Shown piece by piece: positions 5,571 to 25,765 of a stretch of 64,000 nucleotides of DNA. Below the pieces are notes generated by a model, which was given only the letters and a program-made list of their open reading frames with translations, made no database searches and had not been told where the DNA came from. Origin of the DNA: an uncultured Candidatus Rokubacteria bacterium (GTDB lineage Bacteria; Methylomirabilota; Methylomirabilia; Rokubacteriales; CSP1-6); the NCBI GenBank assembly GCA_963747235.1, contig CAVVEU010000024.1:512001-576000 (forward strand). The letters run 5' to 3'. Numbering within the stretch: the first letter of the stretch is position 1; each line of letters begins with the position of its first letter. A program made the translations under genes and the position numbers.

Positions 5571-6832
5571 ATGGAAAGCCCCCGAGCCGACGGCCGCACC
5601 GCTCACGTCACCGCCGACGTCGCCGCCGAGGTGCGCCGCCGCTTCGGCACGCCCTGCTACGTCTACGATCACGCCGCGCTCGAGACGGCGGCGCGGCAGG
5701 CGCTGGCCTTCCCGGCGCCGTTCGGCCTCACCGTGCGCTACGCGATGAAGGCCAACCCGAGCCGCGGCATCCTCGCGCTGTTCCGCGAGCTGGGCCTGCA
5801 CGTGGACGCCTCGAGCGACTTCGAGGTGGAGCGGGCGCTGCGGGCGGGCTTCGCGGCCGAGCGCATCCAGCTCACCTCGCAGATGCCCTCGCGCGCGCTC
5901 GAGCGGCACCTCGCGCGCGGCATGCTCTTCAACGCCTGCTCGCTGCACCAGCTCGAGGAGTTCGGGCGGCGTCGCGCCGGGCCGGGAGCTCTCCGTGCGG
6001 GTGAACCCGGGGCTCGGCACCGGCTCCACCAAGCGCACCAATACCGGCGGGCCCGCCTCGAGCTTCGGGATCTGGCACGAGGCGCTGGGCGAGATCCTGG
6101 CGCATCGCCAAGCGGTACGACCTGCGCATCCGCCGGCTGCACTCGCACGTCGGCTCCGGCACGGATCCGGAGGTGTGGAAGCGCTGCGCGCGGATGACCC
6201 TCGACCTGGCCGCCCAGCTCCCCGAGGTGGCGAGCATCAACCTGGGGGGCGGCTTCAAGGTCGGCCGCATGCCCGAGGAGCCGTCGGTGGACATGGCCGA
6301 CGTGGGCGCGCACGTGCGGCGCGAGATCGAGGGGTTCCACGACCGCTCGGGCCGGGGCCTCCACCTCGAGATCGAGCCCGGCACCTTCCTCGTCGCCAAC
6401 GCGGGCGTGATCGTCGCCTCCTGCGTGGACGTGGTGGACACCGGCGCGGAGGGCTACTGCTTCGCCAAGCTCGACGCGGGCATGCCCGAGATCACGCGGC
6501 CCTCGCTCTACGGCGCCCAGCACCCGATCGACGTGCTGGCCGCCGGGCGCGAGCAGAAGGCGGTGGTCTTCGTGGGCCCGTGCTGCGAGTCGGGGGACAT
6601 CCTCACGCCGGCCCCCGGCGATCCCGAGGCGCTCGCGCCCCGCTGGGTGGCGACCCCGCGGATCGGGGACCTGGTGGTGATCGGCGGCGCGGGCGCCTAC
6701 TGCGCGGGCATGGCCACGATCAACTACAACTCCTACCCGCAGGCGCCCGAGGTCATGCTCGGCCGCGACGGCGCGCTCACGCTGCTACGCCGACGCCAGA
6801 CGCCAGAGCAGGTCTGGCAAAACGAGTTCTAG
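5571..6832 (+). CDS. lysA: Diaminopimelate decarboxylase (frameshifts ~5970-6110)
   Basis: [54 protein letters not shown]. Confidence 0.88.
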
Positions 6833-7909
6833 GGGACGCGGACGGAGATTTCGTTGGAGCGCGCGCTCTCGTTGGGGCGGCGCGCCCGGTCGAACGCGGT
6901 GACCGCGTAGCGGTAGGTCGCGCCCGGCCGCACGTCGCGGTCCAGGTAGACGGTGGCGACCGCCATCGTCGTCGCGATGCGCATGAAGTCGCCCGTCTCG
7001 CCCGCCCGGTAGATCGCGTAGAGCGCCACGTCCGGCGAGCCGCTCGCGTTCCAGGCCAGTCGCACCGCGCCCGGCGACGGCACCGCGAGCAGGTTGGCGG
7101 GCGCGGCGGGCGGCGTGGTGTCGGCCGCCGCGACGACCACCGCCGCCGAGGTCTCGCCGGTGGCGGTGACCGCCGGATCCACGCGCACCGCGCGCACCGC
7201 GTAGCGATAGTCGGTGTCGTTGTCCACGCCCTCGTCGGTGAACGTGGTGCCGTCCACCGGCTTCGGCGTGATCGCGCTGAGCGCGCCCTCCGCGCCCGCG
7301 CCCCGCAGCACGACGTAGCGCAGATCGCCGGGAGCGGGCGAGCCGTCCACCATCTCGGCGGGCGGCTGCCAGGTCAGGCGGATGCGGCGGTCGCCCGGCG
7401 CGGCGCTGAGCGCGCGCGGCGCCTTCGGGGCGGCCAGGTAGGGGATCACGAGGCGCTCGGAGGGCCCGCTGCTCCGCCCGAGCGCGTCCTCGGCGGTGAC
7501 CACGTAGACGTAGCGGCGGCCGACCGCGAGCGCGCGCCGGTCCACCCACGTGACCGTGGAGCCCTGCCACGGTCGCGGGCGCGGGGCTCTCGGGCCGGAT
7601 CGTCGCGATCTCGTCGTAGCCCACCACGCGGCCCGACGAGAGCATCGCGGACTTGGGCTCGCCGCCGTCGGCTTCTTCCCGCCGATACAGCTTGTACAGG
7701 GCGATCGCGCGCAGGCGCGTGCCGTCCACGCGGGTGCCGGGGGCGGTCCAGCCCACCACGACGCTCTGCTCGTCGACCGCGCCGTGCAGGCCGCTGGGGC
7801 CCGCGGGCACGCGCAGCTCGGGCGCCACCGGCGGTCCCTTCTTGCCGCAGGCGACCAGCGCGCTCGCGGCCAGGAGGAGCAGCAGCGCGCCCCGCGCGGC
7901 CGCCCTCAC
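6829..7909 (-). CDS. Lipoprotein with LptM-like N-terminus and fibronectin type III domains (frameshift ~7560)
   Basis: Lipobox [10 protein letters not shown]; FN3 signatures [34 protein letters not shown]. Confidence 0.8.
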
Positions 7910-9318: not shown

Positions 9319-10058
9319 GAGGCGCCCGCGCGGCCGGCGGCCGCCGCGGGAACGGGCGGCACGCGCAGGAGCGCGGCGATCTCGGCCATGATGCGACGGG
9401 TGGCGTCGTCCCGCTCGGTCCGCGCGATGGGCCCGCGGCGCGCCCGGCCGAAGTGGATCGGCTCCCCGAACCGCACCGCGAGCGGCCGGCGCCGCGGCAG
9501 GTAGAAGCGCCGCCCGCGGAGCGCCTCGTAGGTGCCCTCGATGGCGGCGGGCACCACCGGCACGCCCGCGCGGAGCGCGACCATCGCCGTCCCGGGCCGG
9601 CCGCGCACGAGCCGGCCTTCCTGGCTGAACGGGCCCTCGGGGAAGATGCCCACCACGCGGCCGGCCTCGAGCACCTGCAGCACGCGCTTGATGGCGCCGG
9701 GATCCGGCCGCTCGAGCGCCACCGGGATCGAGCCGATGCGCCGGTGAAACGGCGGATGCAGCGGCGTCGCCCGGAACACGCGCGGCATCACGAGGAACGA
9801 GATCGGCCGCGGCACCGCGACGCCCAGCACGAACCCGTCCAGGTAGTTGTGATGGTTCGAGGCCAGGATGAAGGGGCCGGCCAGCGGTAGCCGCTCCATT
9901 CCCTCGACGCGCAGGTCGAACAATCCCCGCAGCAGCACTCCCGCCACGTCGCGGAACACCCGGTAGACCGGGGGAAACGCCTCCACGGGCACACGGCGCG
10001 ACGCCGCGGACGCGGTCGGCCGCAACACGGACAGGGTAGGGGAGTCTTCGCCCGGCAC
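9315..10058 (-). CDS. 1-acyl-sn-glycerol-3-phosphate (lysophospholipid) acyltransferase; start uncertain
   Basis: NHHNYLD (HX4D), IFPEG, VPVVP. Confidence 0.85.
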   Translation of the reverse strand: MPGEDSPTLSVLRPTASAASRRVPVEAFPPVYRVFRDVAGVLLRGLFDLRVEGMERLPLAGPFILASNHHNYLDGFVLGVAVPRPISFLVMPRVFRATPLHPPFHRRIGSIPVALERPDPGAIKRVLQVLEAGRVVGIFPEGPFSQEGRLVRGRPGTAMVALRAGVPVVPAAIEGTYEALRGRRFYLPRRRPLAVRFGEPIHFGRARRGPIARTERDDATRRIMAEIAALLRVPPVPAAAAGRAGAS

Positions 10059-10204
10059 GGGGGGAGGATAGCACGACGCCGAACCGGTAGAAGGGGGGTC
10101 CGGTAGTGGTCCCTCTGTCCGGTCCTGGACAGACTCGGTGGGCTGAGAGGTGATCTGATCAGAGCCATGAAGGATCTGATCGAGCACCTCGAGGCCCTCT
10201 GCCC

Positions 10205-10567
10205 ATGACGAGACCCGACCGGCCCGTCCAGGTTCCCCTCCTTCACGTGACGCTGGCCGAGCAGCTGGAACGGCTCCGGCAGGAGCCCACGTGGCGCTCG
10301 AAGGGACACAATGCGATCACCTTGACCAAGGCGCCCGGGCTTCGCCTGGTCCTGATGCTATTCGCGAAAGGGGCCAAGCTCGCCGAGCATCGGGCCGCCG
10401 GGCCCCTGACCTTCCACGTCCTGAGTGGCTCGGTGACTTTTCGGACCGGCGCCCGCGCGGAAACGGTCCGGTCCGGAGAGGTTGTCGTGCTCGAGGCAGC
10501 GATCGTGCACGACGTGGAGGCTCTGGAGGAGAGCGCCTGCTTGCTGACCCTCGCGGGCGCTGCCTAG
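10205..10567 (+). CDS. Cupin domain protein
   Basis: LAEHRAAGPLTFHVLSG...IVHDVEALEES. Confidence 0.8.
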   Translation: MTRPDRPVQVPLLHVTLAEQLERLRQEPTWRSKGHNAITLTKAPGLRLVLMLFAKGAKLAEHRAAGPLTFHVLSGSVTFRTGARAETVRSGEVVVLEAAIVHDVEALEESACLLTLAGAA

Positions 10568-10592
10568 TAGGAGGACGCGAGGAGCGGGCGAG

Positions 10593-11648
10593 CTAGCGCG
10601 CGCGCGCGAGGCGGTACCGCGCCACCGCCGCGTTGTGATCCGCCAGGTTGGTGGAGAACGTGTGGAACCGCTCGTCCAGCGACACGAAGTAGAGGTAGTT
10701 CACGCGCGCCGGCCGCACCGCCGCCGCGATGGCCGCGCGCCCCGGGCTCGCGATGGGGCCGGGCGGAAGACCCTGGCGGCGATACGTGTTGTAGGGTGAG
10801 TCCACCTGGAGATCCTCGCGGGTGAGCCGCCGGCGGTCCTTGCCCACCGCGTACTGCACGGTGGGATCCGCCTGCAGCGGCATGTCGCGCCGGATCCGGT
10901 TCCAGAACACCGCGGAGATGAGCGGCATCTCGCTCGATTCGACGGCTTCCTTTTCGATGATGGAGGCGAGCGTGAGCACCTGGTGCAGGCTCACGTCGCG
11001 GCCGCGCGCTTCCACGAGCAGCTCGGGCGAGATCTTCTCGCGCATCCGCGCCACCATGCGGGCCAGGACCTCCTCGGGGGTCATGCCCTTCACGAACTGA
11101 TAGGTGTCCGGGAAGAGGTAGCCTTCCACCGAGTCGGCCTGGATGTCGAGGTTCTTCAGGAAGACGGGGTCCTTGCCGACCCGGAGGATGTCTTCGGCCG
11201 AGACCAGCCGCTCGGTCTGGAGCAGCCGCGCCAGCTCGGCCAGGGTGCTGCCCTCCGGGAAGACCACCATGTGCTGGAGGACCTGGCCGCCCGCGATCTG
11301 CTCGAGCACCCGCACCGTGTTCGAGCCCGCGGGGATCTGGTACTCGCCGGCCTTGAGGCTGCGGAAGCTGCCCCGGGCCAGGGCCAGGAGGACGAAGCCG
11401 ACCCGGCTCCGGATGACCCCCGCTTCGTCCAGGATCTCGGCCACTTCGATGACGCCCTTGTGGGCCGGGAGCTCCACGACCCGGGCCGAGGCCCGCAGCG
11501 GCGCCGGGACGCTGAGGATCCACCAGCCTTCGAGCAGCAGGGAGAGGAGGGCCACGACCACCACGAAGCCCACGGCGGCCCGCCAGGTCGGCCCGGGGCG
11601 TCCAGGCCCAACCCCCCATGTCGGAAGCGATCGGGGACGTTCCATCAT
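10593..11648 (-). CDS. mltG: Endolytic transglycosylase MltG (YceG)
   Basis: N-terminal TM, LKAGEY, EGYLFPDTY, LASIIEKE, LQADPTVQY, GLPPGPIASPG. Confidence 0.95.
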   Translation of the reverse strand: MMERPRSLPTWGVGPGRPGPTWRAAVGFVVVVALLSLLLEGWWILSVPAPLRASARVVELPAHKGVIEVAEILDEAGVIRSRVGFVLLALARGSFRSLKAGEYQIPAGSNTVRVLEQIAGGQVLQHMVVFPEGSTLAELARLLQTERLVSAEDILRVGKDPVFLKNLDIQADSVEGYLFPDTYQFVKGMTPEEVLARMVARMREKISPELLVEARGRDVSLHQVLTLASIIEKEAVESSEMPLISAVFWNRIRRDMPLQADPTVQYAVGKDRRRLTREDLQVDSPYNTYRRQGLPPGPIASPGRAAIAAAVRPARVNYLYFVSLDERFHTFSTNLADHNAAVARYRLARAR

Positions 11649-11727
11649 GGTGAGCCTTCATTCTGGCCGGACTGGGATTCTCAGTCAAACCGGGGGAGTG
11701 GGGAAGGCTGGCGGTCCCGGGGGTTGC

Positions 11728-11736
11728 TGGTATAAT
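11728..11736 (+). promoter_or_regulatory. Extended -10 promoter of rpoA
   Basis: TGgTATAAT; Shine-Dalgarno GAGGAGGG at ~11769-11776. Confidence 0.6.
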
Positions 11737-11782
11737 GACCGGCCTGGGGCGACCCGCCCCAGAACTCTGAGGAGGGAAACCC

Positions 11783-12781
11783 ATGCAGGAGCTGGTGCTT
11801 CCAGTCCGTCACGAATGGCTCGCCCGGGAGCGCGCCTACGGGAAGATCGCGATCGAGCCCTTCGAGCCGGGCTTTGCCCTGACGGCGGGCAATGCCTACC
11901 GCCGGGTGCTGCTGTCGTCCATCACGGGGTCCGCGCCCACCTGGGTCAAGATCGAGGGGGTGCTGCACGAGTTCTCGCACCTGGTCGGGATGCGCGAGGA
12001 CACCCTCGACATCATCCTGAACCTGCGCAAGCTCGTGTTCACGCTGCACGTCAACCGCCCCAAGCTGCTCCGGCTGAAGGTGCAGGGGGTGCGGACGGTG
12101 ACCGCGCGGGACTTCGAGCCCGATCCGGACGTGGAGATCCTGACGCCGGACGTGGCGCTGGCCACGCTGGACAAGGACGGCAGCCTCGAGATGGAAGTGT
12201 GCGTGGAGCGCGGGCGGGGCTACCAGGCGGCGGAGAAGCGCGAGCCGGAGGCGCTGCCCATCAACGCGATGATGATGGACGCGGACTTCTCGCCGGTGAA
12301 GCGCGTGAACTTCCACGTGGAGCCGAAGGGCGCGCACGAGCGGCTCATCATGGAAGTGTGGACCAACGGGACGGTGACGCCGGAGATGGCGGTGGCCGAC
12401 GCCTCGCGGATCCTCGACGACCAGTTCGCGCTGCTGATCGACTTCCCGACCACGCCGCCGGTGCAGACCGAGGGGACCGAGGCCGTCGCGGGCGAGCCCG
12501 CGCCGCGGAGCGAGGTGAACGAGCACCTCTTCCGCAACGTGGACGAGCTCGAGCTGTCGGTGCGCGCGTCCAACTGCCTCAAGACCGCGAACATCCGGAC
12601 CATCGCGGATCTCGTGCAGAAGACCGAGTCGGAGCTGCTGAAGACCAAGAATTTCGGCAAGAAGTCGCTGAACGAGATCAAGACCATCCTGGGGGAGATG
12701 GGGCTCTCCCTGGGCATGCGTCTCGATCCCGAAGAGCTGGAGCGGCTGCGCGCTCACTACGAGCGCGCGTTCGAGACCTAG
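11783..12781 (+). CDS. rpoA: DNA-directed RNA polymerase subunit alpha (stand-alone, divergent NTD)
   Basis: [60 protein letters not shown]. Confidence 0.96.
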
Positions 12782-12820
12782 ACCGCCTCCCGCTTCCCGC
12801 GCGTCCACCACGGCCTCCGG

Positions 12821-15229
12821 TCATCCGGGGGCCGTGCTGTTTTCGGGGGTCTTTTCCGAGATCGTTTCGGGGTCGAGCTCCCAGGTCTCGGTGACGCCGC
12901 GGGCCCACGCGGTCACGCGCAGCACGCGTCCGTCGGTCTCCAGGATGACCGCGCCGTCGCGGTCGGTGCGGTAGACGCGCGCGCCCGCCGCGTCGAGGCG
13001 GGCGAGCGCCTCCGCGCTCGGGTGGCGGAAGGGATTGCGTGCGCCCACCGAGATCACCGCGAGCCGCGGCCGGGCCCGCTCGAGGAACGGCGCGGTGGAG
13101 GAGAACCGGCTGCCGTGATGCGCGACCTTGAGCGCGAGGGCGGCCACCGGGCCGGCACGCTCGAGCAGTAGCGCCTCGCCGCGGGCGCCCAGGTCGCCCG
13201 CGAGCAGCAGCGACACGCCACGCCAGTCGAGCCGCAACACCAGCGACTGGTCATTGGCCGTCTGCGCCGGCTCCGGACCGGGGCCGAGCACCGTGATCAG
13301 CGCGCTTCCGAGCCAGAGGCGCTGGCCGGCCGCCAGCACGCGGCGGGGCGCGCGCGAGCGGAGCAGCGCGGCCACCGTCTCCGGCGCGCCGCCCGAAGGG
13401 CGCCCGCTTTCCCAGAACTCGCCCACGTGGAAGTGGGTGAGGACGGCGGCGAGCCCGCCGGAGTGATCGGCGTCCCAGTGGGTGAGCGCGACCGCGTCCA
13501 GCCGGGCGAGCGGCCGGTTCCAGAGAAACGGCGCCAGCACGCGCTCGCCCACGTCGAAGCGGCGGACGCCGCCGGGCCCGCCGTCCACGAGCAGGCGCGG
13601 CCCCTCGGGCAGCTCGATCAGCGCCGCGTCCCCCTGGCCGACGTCGAGGAACGTCACGCGGAGCATGGTCTCGGTCGGCCGGAGCCACGGCCAGATCGAG
13701 AGCGCCGCCACCAGGACCACCAGAACCCCCATCACGACCCGGATGCGGCGGGACGCGGCCATCCCCGGCGCGAGGAGGACCGCGCCGTACCAGGCGACCG
13801 CGGTCGCCGCGGACGGCGCCGGCAGGTGCACCATCGCGGCGGGCAGGGCGGCCGCCAGGGAGACGCCCGCGCGCAGCGCGATCAGGACGAGCCAGAGCGC
13901 GTGGAAGAGCAGCGCGGCGAGCGCGCCCGAGGCCAGCTCGACCAGCAGCGCGAGCATGCCGAGGGTCGTCGCCACCGCGGCGAGCGGCACCACGAGCAGG
14001 TTGGCGACCACGCCGATCAGCGAGAGCTGATTGAAGTGGGCGAGCATGAGCGGCGTGACCGCGGCCTGCGCGCCCAGGCTCACCGCCACCGCCGCCGCGA
14101 GCCAGGCGGGCGCGCCGCGCGCGACGAGGCGCGCCGTGATGACCGGCCCGAGGTAGACGATGCCCGCGGTGGCCGCGAAGGAGAGCTGGAAGCCGGGCTC
14201 CCAGAGATCGCCGGGCCGCCAGAGCAGGAGCGCGAGCACCGCGAGGGCCAGCGCGTTGGGGAGCTGGGACTCGCGGTCGAGCAGCAGGGCGGCGAGCAGC
14301 AGCAACCCCATCACGGTGGCACGCAGCACGGACGGCTGGCCGCCCACGACCAGCGCGAACCCGACGAGCACGACGGCGGCCACGCCCGCGGCGCCGCGGC
14401 GCGGGACCCCGCACATGGCCAGCCCGCCGAACACCGCGCCCGCGAGCAGCGCCACGTTGAAGCCCGACACCGCGAGGATGTGGTAGACGCCGGCCCGCCG
14501 GAAGCCGGCGTCGATTTCACGAGGCAGCGCCGACCGCTCCCCGAGCAGCAGGCCCGCCAGCAGCGCGGCCGACGTCTCCGGCAGGCGCGCGGTGATGACG
14601 CCGACGGCCCAGCGCTTCACCGCCACCGGCCACGGCGGAGCATCCGGCGTCAGCGCGGTGATCCGATCCGATCGCGCGTGGCCGACCAGGAGAATGCCCT
14701 CGCGCCGCAGATGTTCCGGATAGTCGAAGCCGCCGGGGTTCCGGAAGCCGACGGGCCGATGGAGCCGCGCGTCCACGAGCACGCGCTGGTCCTCGCCGAG
14801 CGGGAGCGCGAGCTCGCCGTAGACGGTGAGCTGGACGCGGCCCACCGCGGGCAGCCGCTCGGGACCCGCGTGCAGGGCGTCCACGTCGAGCAGGAGCCGC
14901 GTGCGATCCGGCGTCCAGCGGACCGGCTCCTCGGCGAGCCGCCCCTCCAGCGCCAGCGTCCCGACGAGCGCCCGCCGGGCCAGGTGATCGGCGGGCAGAG
15001 GCGACCCGGCGACGCGTAGCGCGCCCAGCAGGGTCAGGCCGGCCAGGACCAGCACCAGCGCCGCGCGCGGATGCCGGCGGCTCGCGAGCGCGGCGAGCAG
15101 GAGCATGCCGGCCGCGGCGACGAGCAGGCGCGGCGTGGGGAGCGATAGCCACGCGGCCGCCGCGATGCCCGCGGTGACGGCCGCCGCGGGCGGCAGGAGC
15201 GGCGCGGTCGCGAGCCGCCGCTCAATCAC
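12821..15229 (-). CDS. comEC: DNA uptake channel ComEC/Rec2
   Basis: NPGGFDY, HILAVSGFNV, GFQLSFAA, FLDVGQGDA, THWDADHSGG, KVAHHGS. Confidence 0.95.
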   Translation of the reverse strand: MIERRLATAPLLPPAAAVTAGIAAAAWLSLPTPRLLVAAAGMLLLAALASRRHPRAALVLVLAGLTLLGALRVAGSPLPADHLARRALVGTLALEGRLAEEPVRWTPDRTRLLLDVDALHAGPERLPAVGRVQLTVYGELALPLGEDQRVLVDARLHRPVGFRNPGGFDYPEHLRREGILLVGHARSDRITALTPDAPPWPVAVKRWAVGVITARLPETSAALLAGLLLGERSALPREIDAGFRRAGVYHILAVSGFNVALLAGAVFGGLAMCGVPRRGAAGVAAVVLVGFALVVGGQPSVLRATVMGLLLLAALLLDRESQLPNALALAVLALLLWRPGDLWEPGFQLSFAATAGIVYLGPVITARLVARGAPAWLAAAVAVSLGAQAAVTPLMLAHFNQLSLIGVVANLLVVPLAAVATTLGMLALLVELASGALAALLFHALWLVLIALRAGVSLAAALPAAMVHLPAPSAATAVAWYGAVLLAPGMAASRRIRVVMGVLVVLVAALSIWPWLRPTETMLRVTFLDVGQGDAALIELPEGPRLLVDGGPGGVRRFDVGERVLAPFLWNRPLARLDAVALTHWDADHSGGLAAVLTHFHVGEFWESGRPSGGAPETVAALLRSRAPRRVLAAGQRLWLGSALITVLGPGPEPAQTANDQSLVLRLDWRGVSLLLAGDLGARGEALLLERAGPVAALALKVAHHGSRFSSTAPFLERARPRLAVISVGARNPFRHPSAEALARLDAAGARVYRTDRDGAVILETDGRVLRVTAWARGVTETWELDPETISEKTPENSTAPG

Positions 15230-23275: not shown

Positions 23276-24574
23276 TCATGCCTCCACCCGGATCATCGTG
23301 GTGCGCCCGGCCACCACCGGCAGCTTGTCGATGGCGGCGAGCGCGGCGCGCATGTCCCGCTCCCGCGCCTCGTGCGTCATCATGACCACCGGCACCGCCT
23401 CCGTGCGCGCGCGCTCCTTCTGGAGCACCGAGACGAGGGAGATGTCGTGCCGCCCGAGGATGCCCGCCACCTGGGCGAGCACGCCGGGCTGGTCCAGGGC
23501 CATCACGCGCAGGTAGTAGGCCGAGCGGATGTCGTCCATGGGCCGGAGCGGCAGGGGGTTGCGCCCGACGGACGGGAGATCGATGTCGAGCGCCGGGATG
23601 CCGTGGGCGACCCGCCGCGCGATCTCGAGCGCGTCGGACCAGACCGCGGAGGCGGTCGGGAGCTGGCCGGCCCCGCGGCCGTAGAACATGAGGTTGCCCA
23701 CGTTGTCGCCGGTCATGAATACAGCATTGAAGACGCCGGAGACCGCCGCCATGGGCGACCCGGCCGGGATCATCGTGGGGTGCACGCGGGCTTCCAGGCC
23801 GCCGTCCGAGGCCTTGGCGATCGCGAGCAGCTTGATGCGGTAGCCGAGCTCGGTGGCGTTGACCACGTCCTGCTGGGTCACCGCGGTGATGCCCTCGGTG
23901 TAGATGTCCTTGAGATCCACCGTGGTGCGGAAGGCCAGGGTGGCCAGGATCTGCAGCTTGTGGGCGGAGTCCATGCCCTCGATGTCGAGCGTGGGATCGG
24001 ACTCCGCGTAGCCGTGGGCCTGCGCTTCCTTCAGGACCTCGCCGAAGTCCCGCCCCTCGTCGGTCATCTTGGACAGGATGTAGTTGCAGGTGCCGTTGAC
24101 GATGCCGAAGGTGGACAGGATCCGGTTCGCGGGTAGCCCGTCCTTGACCGCGCGGATGAGGGGGATGCCGCCCGCCACCGCCGCCTCGAAGCCGAGCATC
24201 ACCCCGCGGCGCCGCGCTTCCTCGAACAGCTCGGTCCCGTGATGGGCGAGCAGCGCCTTGTTGGCGGTGACCACGTGCTTGCCCGCCGCGAGGGCCCGGA
24301 GGATGAAGGTGCGCGCGGGCTCGAGCCCGCCGATCAGCTCGATGACGATCTGCACCGAGGGGTCGTCGATGGCCTGGTTGGCGTCGCTGCCCAGGGGCAG
24401 GCGGGCCAGGTCGATGCCGTCGCGCGGCCGCGTGAGGTCGGCGTCCACGACGCGCCCGAGGGCGAGCCGGCAGCCGGCGCGCTCGGCCATCTCGGCGCCA
24501 TGGCTCTGGAGCACCTTGACCACGCCGCAGCCGACGGTGCCCAGGCCCAGGAGGGCGATCTTGATCTCGTTCAG
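23276..24574 (-). CDS. hom: Homoserine dehydrogenase (probable CTG start)
   Basis: In-frame upstream LNEIKIALLGLGTVG, VVTANK, EAAVAGGIP, GYAESDP, C-terminal ACT. Confidence 0.95.
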   Translation of the reverse strand: MNEIKIALLGLGTVGCGVVKVLQSHGAEMAERAGCRLALGRVVDADLTRPRDGIDLARLPLGSDANQAIDDPSVQIVIELIGGLEPARTFILRALAAGKHVVTANKALLAHHGTELFEEARRRGVMLGFEAAVAGGIPLIRAVKDGLPANRILSTFGIVNGTCNYILSKMTDEGRDFGEVLKEAQAHGYAESDPTLDIEGMDSAHKLQILATLAFRTTVDLKDIYTEGITAVTQQDVVNATELGYRIKLLAIAKASDGGLEARVHPTMIPAGSPMAAVSGVFNAVFMTGDNVGNLMFYGRGAGQLPTASAVWSDALEIARRVAHGIPALDIDLPSVGRNPLPLRPMDDIRSAYYLRVMALDQPGVLAQVAGILGRHDISLVSVLQKERARTEAVPVVMMTHEARERDMRAALAAIDKLPVVAGRTTMIRVEA

Positions 24575-24592
24575 GGGGTGCCTCGCCGGGCG

Positions 24593-25765
<1,173 letters not shown>

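Follow-up and report, generated by a model that had tools for sequence, protein, structure and literature searches.

A stand-alone rpoA and its operon paralog in Candidatus Rokubacteria as candidate partners in an oriented RNA polymerase alpha heterodimer

Introduction

Bacterial RNA polymerase (RNAP) is usually described as carrying two identical alpha subunits, with Francisella as the exception. The 64,000-nucleotide (nt) stretch of DNA analysed here (the window; positions 512,001 to 576,000 of contig CAVVEU010000024.1 in the uncultured Candidatus Rokubacteria assembly GCA_963747235.1) includes an rpoA gene that stands between yceG and comEC, outside the alpha operon, and raises the question of which polymerase, and which alpha position within it, such a gene serves. 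The gene, rpoA-sa (11783..12781, + strand; C24:523783-524778 on the contig), encodes 332 amino acids (aa) from an ATG start with no internal stops, as a first-pass annotation of the DNA had described in calling it an intact alpha gene, free of frameshifts and set apart from the operon. Hereafter, sa denotes this stand-alone rpoA and its product, and op the alpha-operon rpoA paralog of the same genome.

Sa and op are proposed, with a probability of about 0.65 from sequence comparison, to be subfunctionalised alpha subunits of a single RNAP, which would assemble around an oriented, Francisella-like heterodimer in which sa takes the beta side. Four observations carry the proposal: (i) the two paralogs are intact, conserved and under purifying selection, (ii) one beta and one beta' are encoded, (iii) each paralog has lost a surface that the other retains, and (iv) op has lost its C-terminal domain (CTD) in some lineages. 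That sa pairs with op, and that sa is the one facing beta, is what these observations suggest.

Two alpha genes in one genome

All three alpha domains are recognised in sa (PF01000, 2.6e-29; PF03118, 2e-26; PF01193, 3.2e-17), including the N-terminal dimerisation and insert domains (PF01193 and PF01000) by which RpoA proteins are known. Sa aligns over its full length with solved alpha structures, the top hit among the best 60 of 72 matches being 7ye1_A (E 1.6e-82). The second gene, op, lies at C24:159605-160531, 364 kb from sa on a shared 832-kb contig, and encodes 328 aa with all three domains (insert domain PF01000, 4.1e-21). It is op, not sa, that occupies the usual rpsM-rpsK-rpsD-rpoA-rplQ location, within the order L6-L18-S5-L15-SecY-Map-IF1-L36-S13-S11-S4-rpoA-L17. 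The first-pass annotation had advised a search for a second rpoA in the rpsK-rpsD-rpoA-rplQ cluster; op is such a gene and has the conserved loop discussed below, and sa is not the only rpoA of its genome. The two proteins are 38% identical, and both are credible alphas when aligned to solved structures. The best scores in the Protein Data Bank (PDB) are to proteobacterial alphas for sa and to alphas of the Firmicutes/Actinobacteria type for op.

Orthologs of sa, with 62-98% identity, occur across the whole order, in public records labelled Candidatus Rokubacteria, Rokuibacteriota or Methylomirabilota and in a few bins labelled otherwise. Among 41 relatives, the window's genome included, 32 have at least two rpoA matches, eight have one and one has none. 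A larger set of 98 genomes from the order, 97 of them at least 90% complete and the other being the window's own (88%), has at least two matches in 86, one in 10 and none in two; the tallies for the order include the unpublished genomes G068, G094 and G122. Of 41 genomes from the remaining orders of the class (unpublished G084 and G145 included), 35 have one match, five have two and one has none, and the single rpoA of the sister orders lies in an S13-S11-S4-rpoA-L17 cluster at 5/5 loci read. Within the order, op stays in the operon at every locus read. Beta (PF00562) and beta' (PF00623) are found at one locus each in 5/5 near-complete relatives.

That the pair of genes is an artefact of binning contamination, chimeric assembly or pseudogene formation is hardly credible. 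The window does come from a metagenome bin of 88% completeness and 4.9% contamination, and odd extra copies occur in a few bins (L056, G099, G151 and G153). Against this, the two genes share one 832-kb contig here and a single contig in several other genomes (G036, G038, G040 and G066), and binning error as the source of two rpoA genes is excluded because of this linkage. In addition, the open reading frames (ORFs) are intact, the ratios of nonsynonymous to synonymous substitution (dN/dS) are low, synteny is conserved and independent contigs from four runs contain parts of the stretch.

Copy number is irregular in a few genomes. Some members of the window's family have three to four alpha matches (G151; G153, on C64, C116 and C93; G099; G104), and in G151 two sa-like genes lie 16 kb apart on one contig (C104:7932-8915 and 24570-25559); the extra sa-like copies are either further duplications of sa or contamination. 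A third alpha at L056 (G033:C358:1-2600) is 42-43% identical to both paralogs, and the adjoining L17 shares just 54% identity; the contig is short and probably does not belong to its bin. G114 and G110, of the window's family and 97% and 91% complete, have zero alpha matches with either query, and G036 has an extra beta/beta' search fragment at a contig end.

Reciprocal degeneration of the N-terminal surfaces

The two paralogs differ most in which parts of the N-terminal domain (NTD) are conserved. Regional identities are given here as mean pairwise values over the same 11 genomes for each paralog, in E. coli numbering, and residue counts refer to 95 distinct sa and 46 distinct op sequences. 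The dimerisation helix region (26-56) is conserved to 81.9% in sa and 81.1% in op. Region 63-72 is 78.7% identical in sa vs 25.5% in op, and region 96-160 is 66.5% vs 47.4%. By contrast, the loop at 188-199 is 39.0% identical in sa and 85.3% in op. This loop is 93.3% identical among single-copy alphas, and sa shares 9.0% identity with them there.

The segment that sa retains and op has lost is LHEFS (E. coli 65-69), encoded in the window by codons L61-H62-E63-F64-S65 (11963..11977, + strand). L65, H66, F68 and S69 are each present in 95/95 sa and E67 in 94/95, whereas none of the five is conserved in op. The loop presents the opposite picture. In the window, sa has a degenerate short loop, P181-R187 (PKGAHER; 12323..12343, + strand), which alignments place at E. 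coli 189-200 and which has five residues fewer than its counterparts in solved alphas, E. coli included. Measured from V187 to L201, the loop is 8-16 residues long in sa but always 13 in op, in five single-copy alphas and in E. coli. R191 is found in 0/95 sa and 46/46 op, and is also kept in single-copy alphas and E. coli. D197 (46/46) and T196 (40/46) are likewise retained in op, and neither is among the five commonest residues at its position in sa. Op thereby keeps an RxGxxTDYxKL loop that sa has lost, and sa lacks the 13-residue RVxQxTDxDKL pattern of RpoA proteins (E. coli 191-201). Two further positions, both involved in beta' binding in E. coli, distinguish the paralogs: position 86 is Arg in 93/95 sa and Lys in 40/46 op, and position 200 is Arg in 94/95 sa and Lys in 37/46 op. 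R44 and R45 are invariant in both (95/95 sa and 46/46 op).

Several points of the first-pass annotation bear on these surfaces. The peptide strings it had quoted from the CTD, NTD and loop are all present in the translation, and its account of a loop about five residues shorter, with no R191 equivalent, agrees with the alignments to solved alphas, as does its statement that sa retains the R45 equivalent. The deletion it described is genuine but is one state of a loop that varies in length among orthologs. Its expectation that the operon copy would have a degenerate R45 region was wrong; it is the LHEFS segment that op has lost instead.

The short loop of sa is bridged without indels by RNA-library contigs of three runs (X15, X16 and X18) from three studies; one bridging contig is 635 nt long and covers 11771-12405. 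This check uses assembled RNA-library contigs rather than raw reads. In DNA run X2, no listed piece spans 12323-12343 and depth is 0 at several places in the loop. A contig of the same run joins 12322 to 12494, skipping 171 positions (depth 4.89), and at 90% likeness may come from another organism. The X2 gap is counted neither for nor against the short loop.

In E. coli, beta protects alpha residues 30-55 and 65-75 and beta' protects 175-185 and 195-210; R45 is required for beta binding, and beta' binding is impaired in the K86A and V173A mutants and in mutants with insertions at 180 and 200 (PMC3294249). Projected onto this map, sa retains the beta-footprint segment but no longer the loop in the beta'-footprint region, and op shows the reverse, together with both lysines. 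A homodimeric alpha must fill both positions; therefore, reciprocal loss would be expected only if each paralog serves one of them.

The known dimer-interface residues are mildly changed, with F35Y and S50I/V/A in op and L39V/A in sa. A knob-into-hole interface, in which a small residue at position 39 of sa would meet a bulky residue at position 50 of op, was considered and set aside: family f1 shows the pattern, but f3 and f4, with A or V at op 50, do so inconsistently, and it is a hint only.

The C-terminal domains

The CTD of sa (residues 244-304; 12512..12694, + strand) is canonical and is 92.8% conserved vs 70.7% for the sa NTD (mean pairwise identity, six genomes). Nine residues, namely E261, R265, N268, C269, K271, G296, K297, K298 and S299, are each present in 95/95 sa, which bears out the highly canonical CTD of the first-pass annotation. 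Six of these (R265, N268, C269, G296, K298 and S299, in E. coli numbering) are presumably the residues by which the alpha CTD binds DNA and activators, and all six are thus found in every sa. The CTD of op is 70.4% conserved and is altered at E261, C269 and K297, which we take to be positions contacting sigma region 4 and DNA: E261P is found in 30/36 and C269A in 34/36, with E, S, D or T in place of K297. R265, G296, K298 and S299 are retained in 36/36 op and N268 in 34/36.

The op ORF of families f3 and f4 is complete at 237-255 aa, lacks a CTD and has an acidic tail, with L17 immediately downstream (10/10 loci). PF03118 occurs once per genome, in sa, in 5/5 genomes with a CTD-less op; the window's genome has two. 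The single occurrence in these genomes indicates that the f3 and f4 lineages encode a single alpha-CTD. A split gene, with the op CTD encoded separately, was also considered and is ruled out by the same 5/5 count.

The two genes might instead supply two alternative polymerases, (sa)2-beta-beta' and (op)2-beta-beta', that differ in promoter and activator specificity, with op tied to growth and sa regulated separately. The separate promoters and contexts of sa and op would suit such an arrangement, as would the CTD differences at E261, C269 and K297, with their presumed contacts to sigma region 4 and DNA, and the dimer-interface residues that are largely kept in both paralogs. However, homodimers need both surfaces to be constrained, yet each paralog has lost a different one. 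There is just one beta/beta' set, and an (op)2 enzyme of families f3 and f4, whose genomes measure 5-8 Mb, would be devoid of any CTD. Two alternative polymerases are considered unlikely. The annotation had offered both a position-specialised, beta-facing alpha of a heterodimer and a free-standing alternative alpha, and the comparative evidence favours the former.

Origin and selection

The paralogs form separate clades that are sisters of one another. In a quick tree of 86 rows, for which 49 of 113 representatives (300-365 aa) were used and nine near-duplicate or truncated rows of our own were left out, sa and op are each monophyletic (support 100 and 99, respectively) and group together as sisters (98). 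A careful tree of 53 rows (11 genome pairs, the op of family f2, seven sister-order alphas, E. coli and 22 representatives) recovers sa (100/99), op (100/99) and their sister relationship (94/80). The two clades have mirrored internal branching orders and long stems (0.38 and 0.32), and the sa+op clade is separate from the sister-order clade. The approximately unbiased (AU) test rejects grouping sa with the sister-order alphas to the exclusion of op (p 0.0165), and rejects the same grouping of op to the exclusion of sa (p 0.0034), while a single clade of sa, op and sister-order alphas is not rejected (p 0.172); the groups were named only once the tree had been seen. These sequences are best read as the products of one rpoA duplication in the order's ancestor, both copies having since been inherited vertically.

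A different history, in which one paralog is foreign and acquired by horizontal transfer, such that sa and op need not cooperate, is very unlikely. The differing best matches of the two proteins in the PDB (proteobacterial for sa, Firmicutes/Actinobacteria-type for op) and the failure of the sa+op clade to join the sister-order clade in the careful tree are compatible with a foreign copy. However, sa and op are mutual sisters in both trees, the AU test rejects either paralog alone with the sister-order alphas without rejecting the monophyly of the three groups, and no donor-like relative above 44% identity was found among 1.84 billion representatives; moreover, origin would leave function undecided. 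For op in particular, no relative above 44% identity was found among these representatives outside its own orthologs, and horizontal transfer of the operon copy is rejected on this result and the AU tests.

Across nine pairs with the window's genome, dN/dS ranges over 0.12-0.26 in sa and 0.08-0.23 in op. Both genes are under purifying selection and are therefore maintained. The phylogeny and dN/dS comparison that the first-pass annotation had called for thus yield two constrained sister clades, but not with the stand-alone copy as the divergent one: sa is nearer the single alphas, evolves more slowly than op and has the canonical CTD. At the five operon loci of the sister orders, the alphas are 47-54% identical to sa vs 40-43% to op.

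The greater likeness of sa to these single alphas could mean that sa is the only true RNAP alpha, a homodimer whose gene moved from the operon, with op left as an assembly factor, a regulator or a protein with a ribosome-linked role. The canonical CTD and slower evolution of sa, and the tolerance of CTD loss in op, point the same way. By contrast, op is strongly constrained at R44, R45, the 26-56 region (81%) and loop 188-199 (85%), its dN/dS is low and its operon place is kept at every locus read. The sa loop is scrambled where single-copy alphas are invariant, which makes sa hard to fit in both alpha positions. A sole-alpha role for sa is thus judged distinctly unlikely.

Outside the order, G135 (sister order) has a second rpoA of its own, 3 kb downstream of the alpha operon (locus L035, G135:C3:116000-132000; rpoA genes at 6082-7131 and 10024-11004, both on the - strand). 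S11 precedes the second gene and is absent from its normal position between S13 and S4. Within the single-copy clade the second rpoA groups with representative P0121 (100/99), and it is therefore an independent duplication. It too has a degenerate loop 188-199 while retaining an LHEFS-like PHEFC, and may parallel sa. Two representatives, P0002 (569 aa) and P0005 (526 aa), match alpha in their C-terminal half and may be gene-call fusions of S4 to alpha.

The proposed heterodimer

In the proposed scheme, rpoA would have duplicated at the base of the order (Candidatus Rokubacteria, phylum Methylomirabilota). The op copy would have stayed in the ribosomal alpha operon, co-expressed with ribosomal proteins, and the sa copy would have become autonomous between mltG and comEC, with its own extended -10 promoter and terminator and monocistronic expression. 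The core enzyme would be sa.op.beta.beta'(omega), with an oriented alpha heterodimer. Sa is predicted to take the beta-proximal (alpha-I) position and to provide the canonical CTD that reads UP elements and activators. Op is predicted to take the beta'-proximal (alpha-II) position, with a CTD that diverged in the window's family and was lost in two other families.

Several points weigh against this scheme. R44 and R45 are intact in both paralogs, though R45 loss marks the non-beta alpha of Francisella. Homodimers of either protein may still form, because the known dimer-interface residues are only mildly changed. The presence of sa and op in RNAP, and their pairing, are argued from genes and not from proteins; the RNA-library contigs over sa do not prove transcription. 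The assignment of surfaces to beta and beta' is an analogy with E. coli footprinting taken from one paper (PMC3294249). Support for the sister relationship of sa and op is moderate (94/80), the long stems allow long-branch attraction and the AU groups were post hoc. Finally, 10/98 genomes of the order have one alpha match and 2/98 have none.

Comparison with known systems and significance

Francisella has rpoA1 in the ribosomal operon and rpoA2 elsewhere, and an alpha1/alpha2 heterodimer is shown in vitro (PMC3294249). The chains of PDB 6wmp are named 'alpha 1' and 'alpha 2', and the side on which each Francisella alpha lies is taken here from PMC3294249 and these chain names only. The likeness to sa and op is considerable: a stand-alone rpoA and a divergent paralog in the alpha operon are present lineage-wide (at least two matches in 86/98 genomes here), there is one beta/beta' set, and changes in the assembly surfaces suggest an oriented heterodimer. 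The duplication is lineage-specific and both copies evolve faster, as indicated here by the 94/80 sister clades and their long stems, with the long-branch caveat above. Lys at position 200 is also present in the presumed beta'-side paralog, here in 37/46 op, and absent in the other.

The differences from Francisella are equally clear. Francisella alpha2 has Gln at position 45, as described in the same source, whereas R45 is intact in both proteins here and the asymmetry lies in 65-69 and 188-199. The beta-side alpha seems to be the stand-alone copy here but the operon copy (alpha1) in Francisella. Here the duplication extends over an entire order in an uncultured phylum, there over one genus; one paralog is without a CTD in two families here, and the pairing here is predicted from genes.

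The archaeal Rpo3/Rpo11 and eukaryotic RPB3/RPB11 (AC40/AC19) pairs also consist of two different alpha-like subunits, of which the larger and better conserved contacts the beta-like subunit, while its partner is reduced, with parts of the fold missing; a second C-terminal regulatory domain is absent (PMC3294249). Op differs in that it retains the insert domain, although less conserved than in sa (region 96-160). No Rpo10/Rpo12 partners are present here, and the origin is independent and bacterial.

Other rpoA duplications are reported from three Chloroflexus species, Streptomyces avermitilis, Psychromonas ingrahamii and Leptospira borgpetersenii (PMC3294249). As described there, the copies are identical or recent or, in Chloroflexus, without drastic substitutions in the dimerisation or beta/beta' regions and possibly equivalent. 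Sa and op share with them the presence of two rpoA genes per genome, but are set apart by this published description, as their assembly regions differ drastically and reciprocally and do not fit equivalent copies. An engineered E. coli RNAP whose oriented heterodimer pairs R45A with wild-type alpha shows the functional non-equivalence of the two alpha positions, and shows that a polymerase with a different alpha in each position works (PMC3294249); this enzyme is artificial, and its orientation is set by R45A rather than by natural differences such as those between sa and op.

Sa and op thus differ from the known cases in breadth, in their diverged surfaces, in the copy apparently facing beta and in the loss of one CTD. 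In the literature collection searched, no paper mentions both Rokubacteria and rpoA, and among the matches listed for bacterial rpoA duplication only those on Francisella are pertinent, the others dealing with plastid or apicoplast rpoA, archaeal rpoA2 or unrelated subjects. Whether Rokubacteriales RNAP is an obligate oriented alpha-I/alpha-II heterodimer, forming the second natural bacterial case and the first to be order-wide, with two families that shed the beta'-side CTD to leave a single-CTD RNAP in convergence on RPB3/RPB11, is an even call.

If the heterodimer holds, sa and op would add a second case to that of Francisella, older and taxonomically broader, with a very clean sequence signature in which each paralog retains the surface lost by the other. 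The pair would be a natural system for the roles of the alpha CTD on the beta and beta' sides, including natural single-CTD enzymes, and a bacterial model for the evolution of the asymmetric RPB3/RPB11 pair. It is also relevant to how promoters and activators are organised in a soil lineage that is abundant and uncultured. RpoA serves as a single-copy marker gene, and given this use its duplication may inflate contamination estimates for genomes of the order.

Expression signals and neighbouring genes

The extended -10 element that the first-pass annotation had assigned to sa, TGgTATAAT (11728..11736, + strand), is present and conserved. Of 92 distinct upstream regions of sa orthologs, 91 have TATA[ACG]T no more than 125 nt ahead of the start, 40 have an exact TATAAT and 68 have TGnTAnnnT; by a rough hand estimate, with A and T at about 0.15 each, the chance of TATA[ACG]T in such windows is <1%. 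A sigma-70 scan does not list the + strand promoter, because the scan requires a good -35 hexamer and none is present. The putative sa promoter is thus indicated by the extended -10 and its conservation. The sole sigma-70-like match in the intergenic region lies on the minus strand (11660-11688; TTGACT, 17 nt, CAGAAT) and points toward mltG, such that the sa/mltG spacer may hold divergent promoters.

The strong Shine-Dalgarno sequence of the earlier description is likewise in place (GGAGG, 11771..11775, + strand, 7 nt before the sa ATG), and most sa orthologs compared have GGAGG or GGGGG at the equivalent place. Downstream of the sa stop, a terminator-like hairpin (12809..12846, + strand) of 12 pairs, 10 of them G-C, with a T-rich tail overlaps the 3' end of comEC; three terminator-like sites occur in the region vs 0.5 expected from shuffles. 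The RNA cover of X15 and X16 ends at the ends of the sa ORF, while that of the DNA run extends over all 30 bins, which hints no more than weakly at a monocistronic sa transcript.

A GC-rich hairpin, CUGGGGCG-ACC-CGCCCCAG, lies just past the -10 (11737-11765 in the window) and is also seen in the 5' untranslated regions (UTRs) of family f1 orthologs. A conserved 5' UTR hairpin was not recovered as a consensus structure by RNAalifold on 42 of 64 extracted UTRs, and a stable one is unsupported by single-sequence folds of 91 UTRs (median z -0.06 vs shuffles).

The neighbours named at first pass stand. The divergent mltG/yceG gene lies at 10593..11648 (- strand; PF02618, 1.1e-84) and the convergent comEC gene at 12821..15229 (- strand; PF03772, PF13567 and PF00753). 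Adjacency of sa to mltG is kept at six loci (L040, L042, L043, L044, L061 and L062) and to comEC at four (L040, L042, L043 and L044), and the full comEC / rpoA-sa / mltG order is kept in 4/4 long loci from two families.

Two sa orthologs are aberrant. In a genome of the window's genus (L023, G013:C15:389229-392936), a single in-frame TGA or a frameshift divides sa into two pieces (393 and 227 codons), which reflects either a pseudogene or an assembly error. At L061 (G026:C19, family f3), the C-terminus of sa is aberrant after NEIK, where a frameshift or assembly error is likely.

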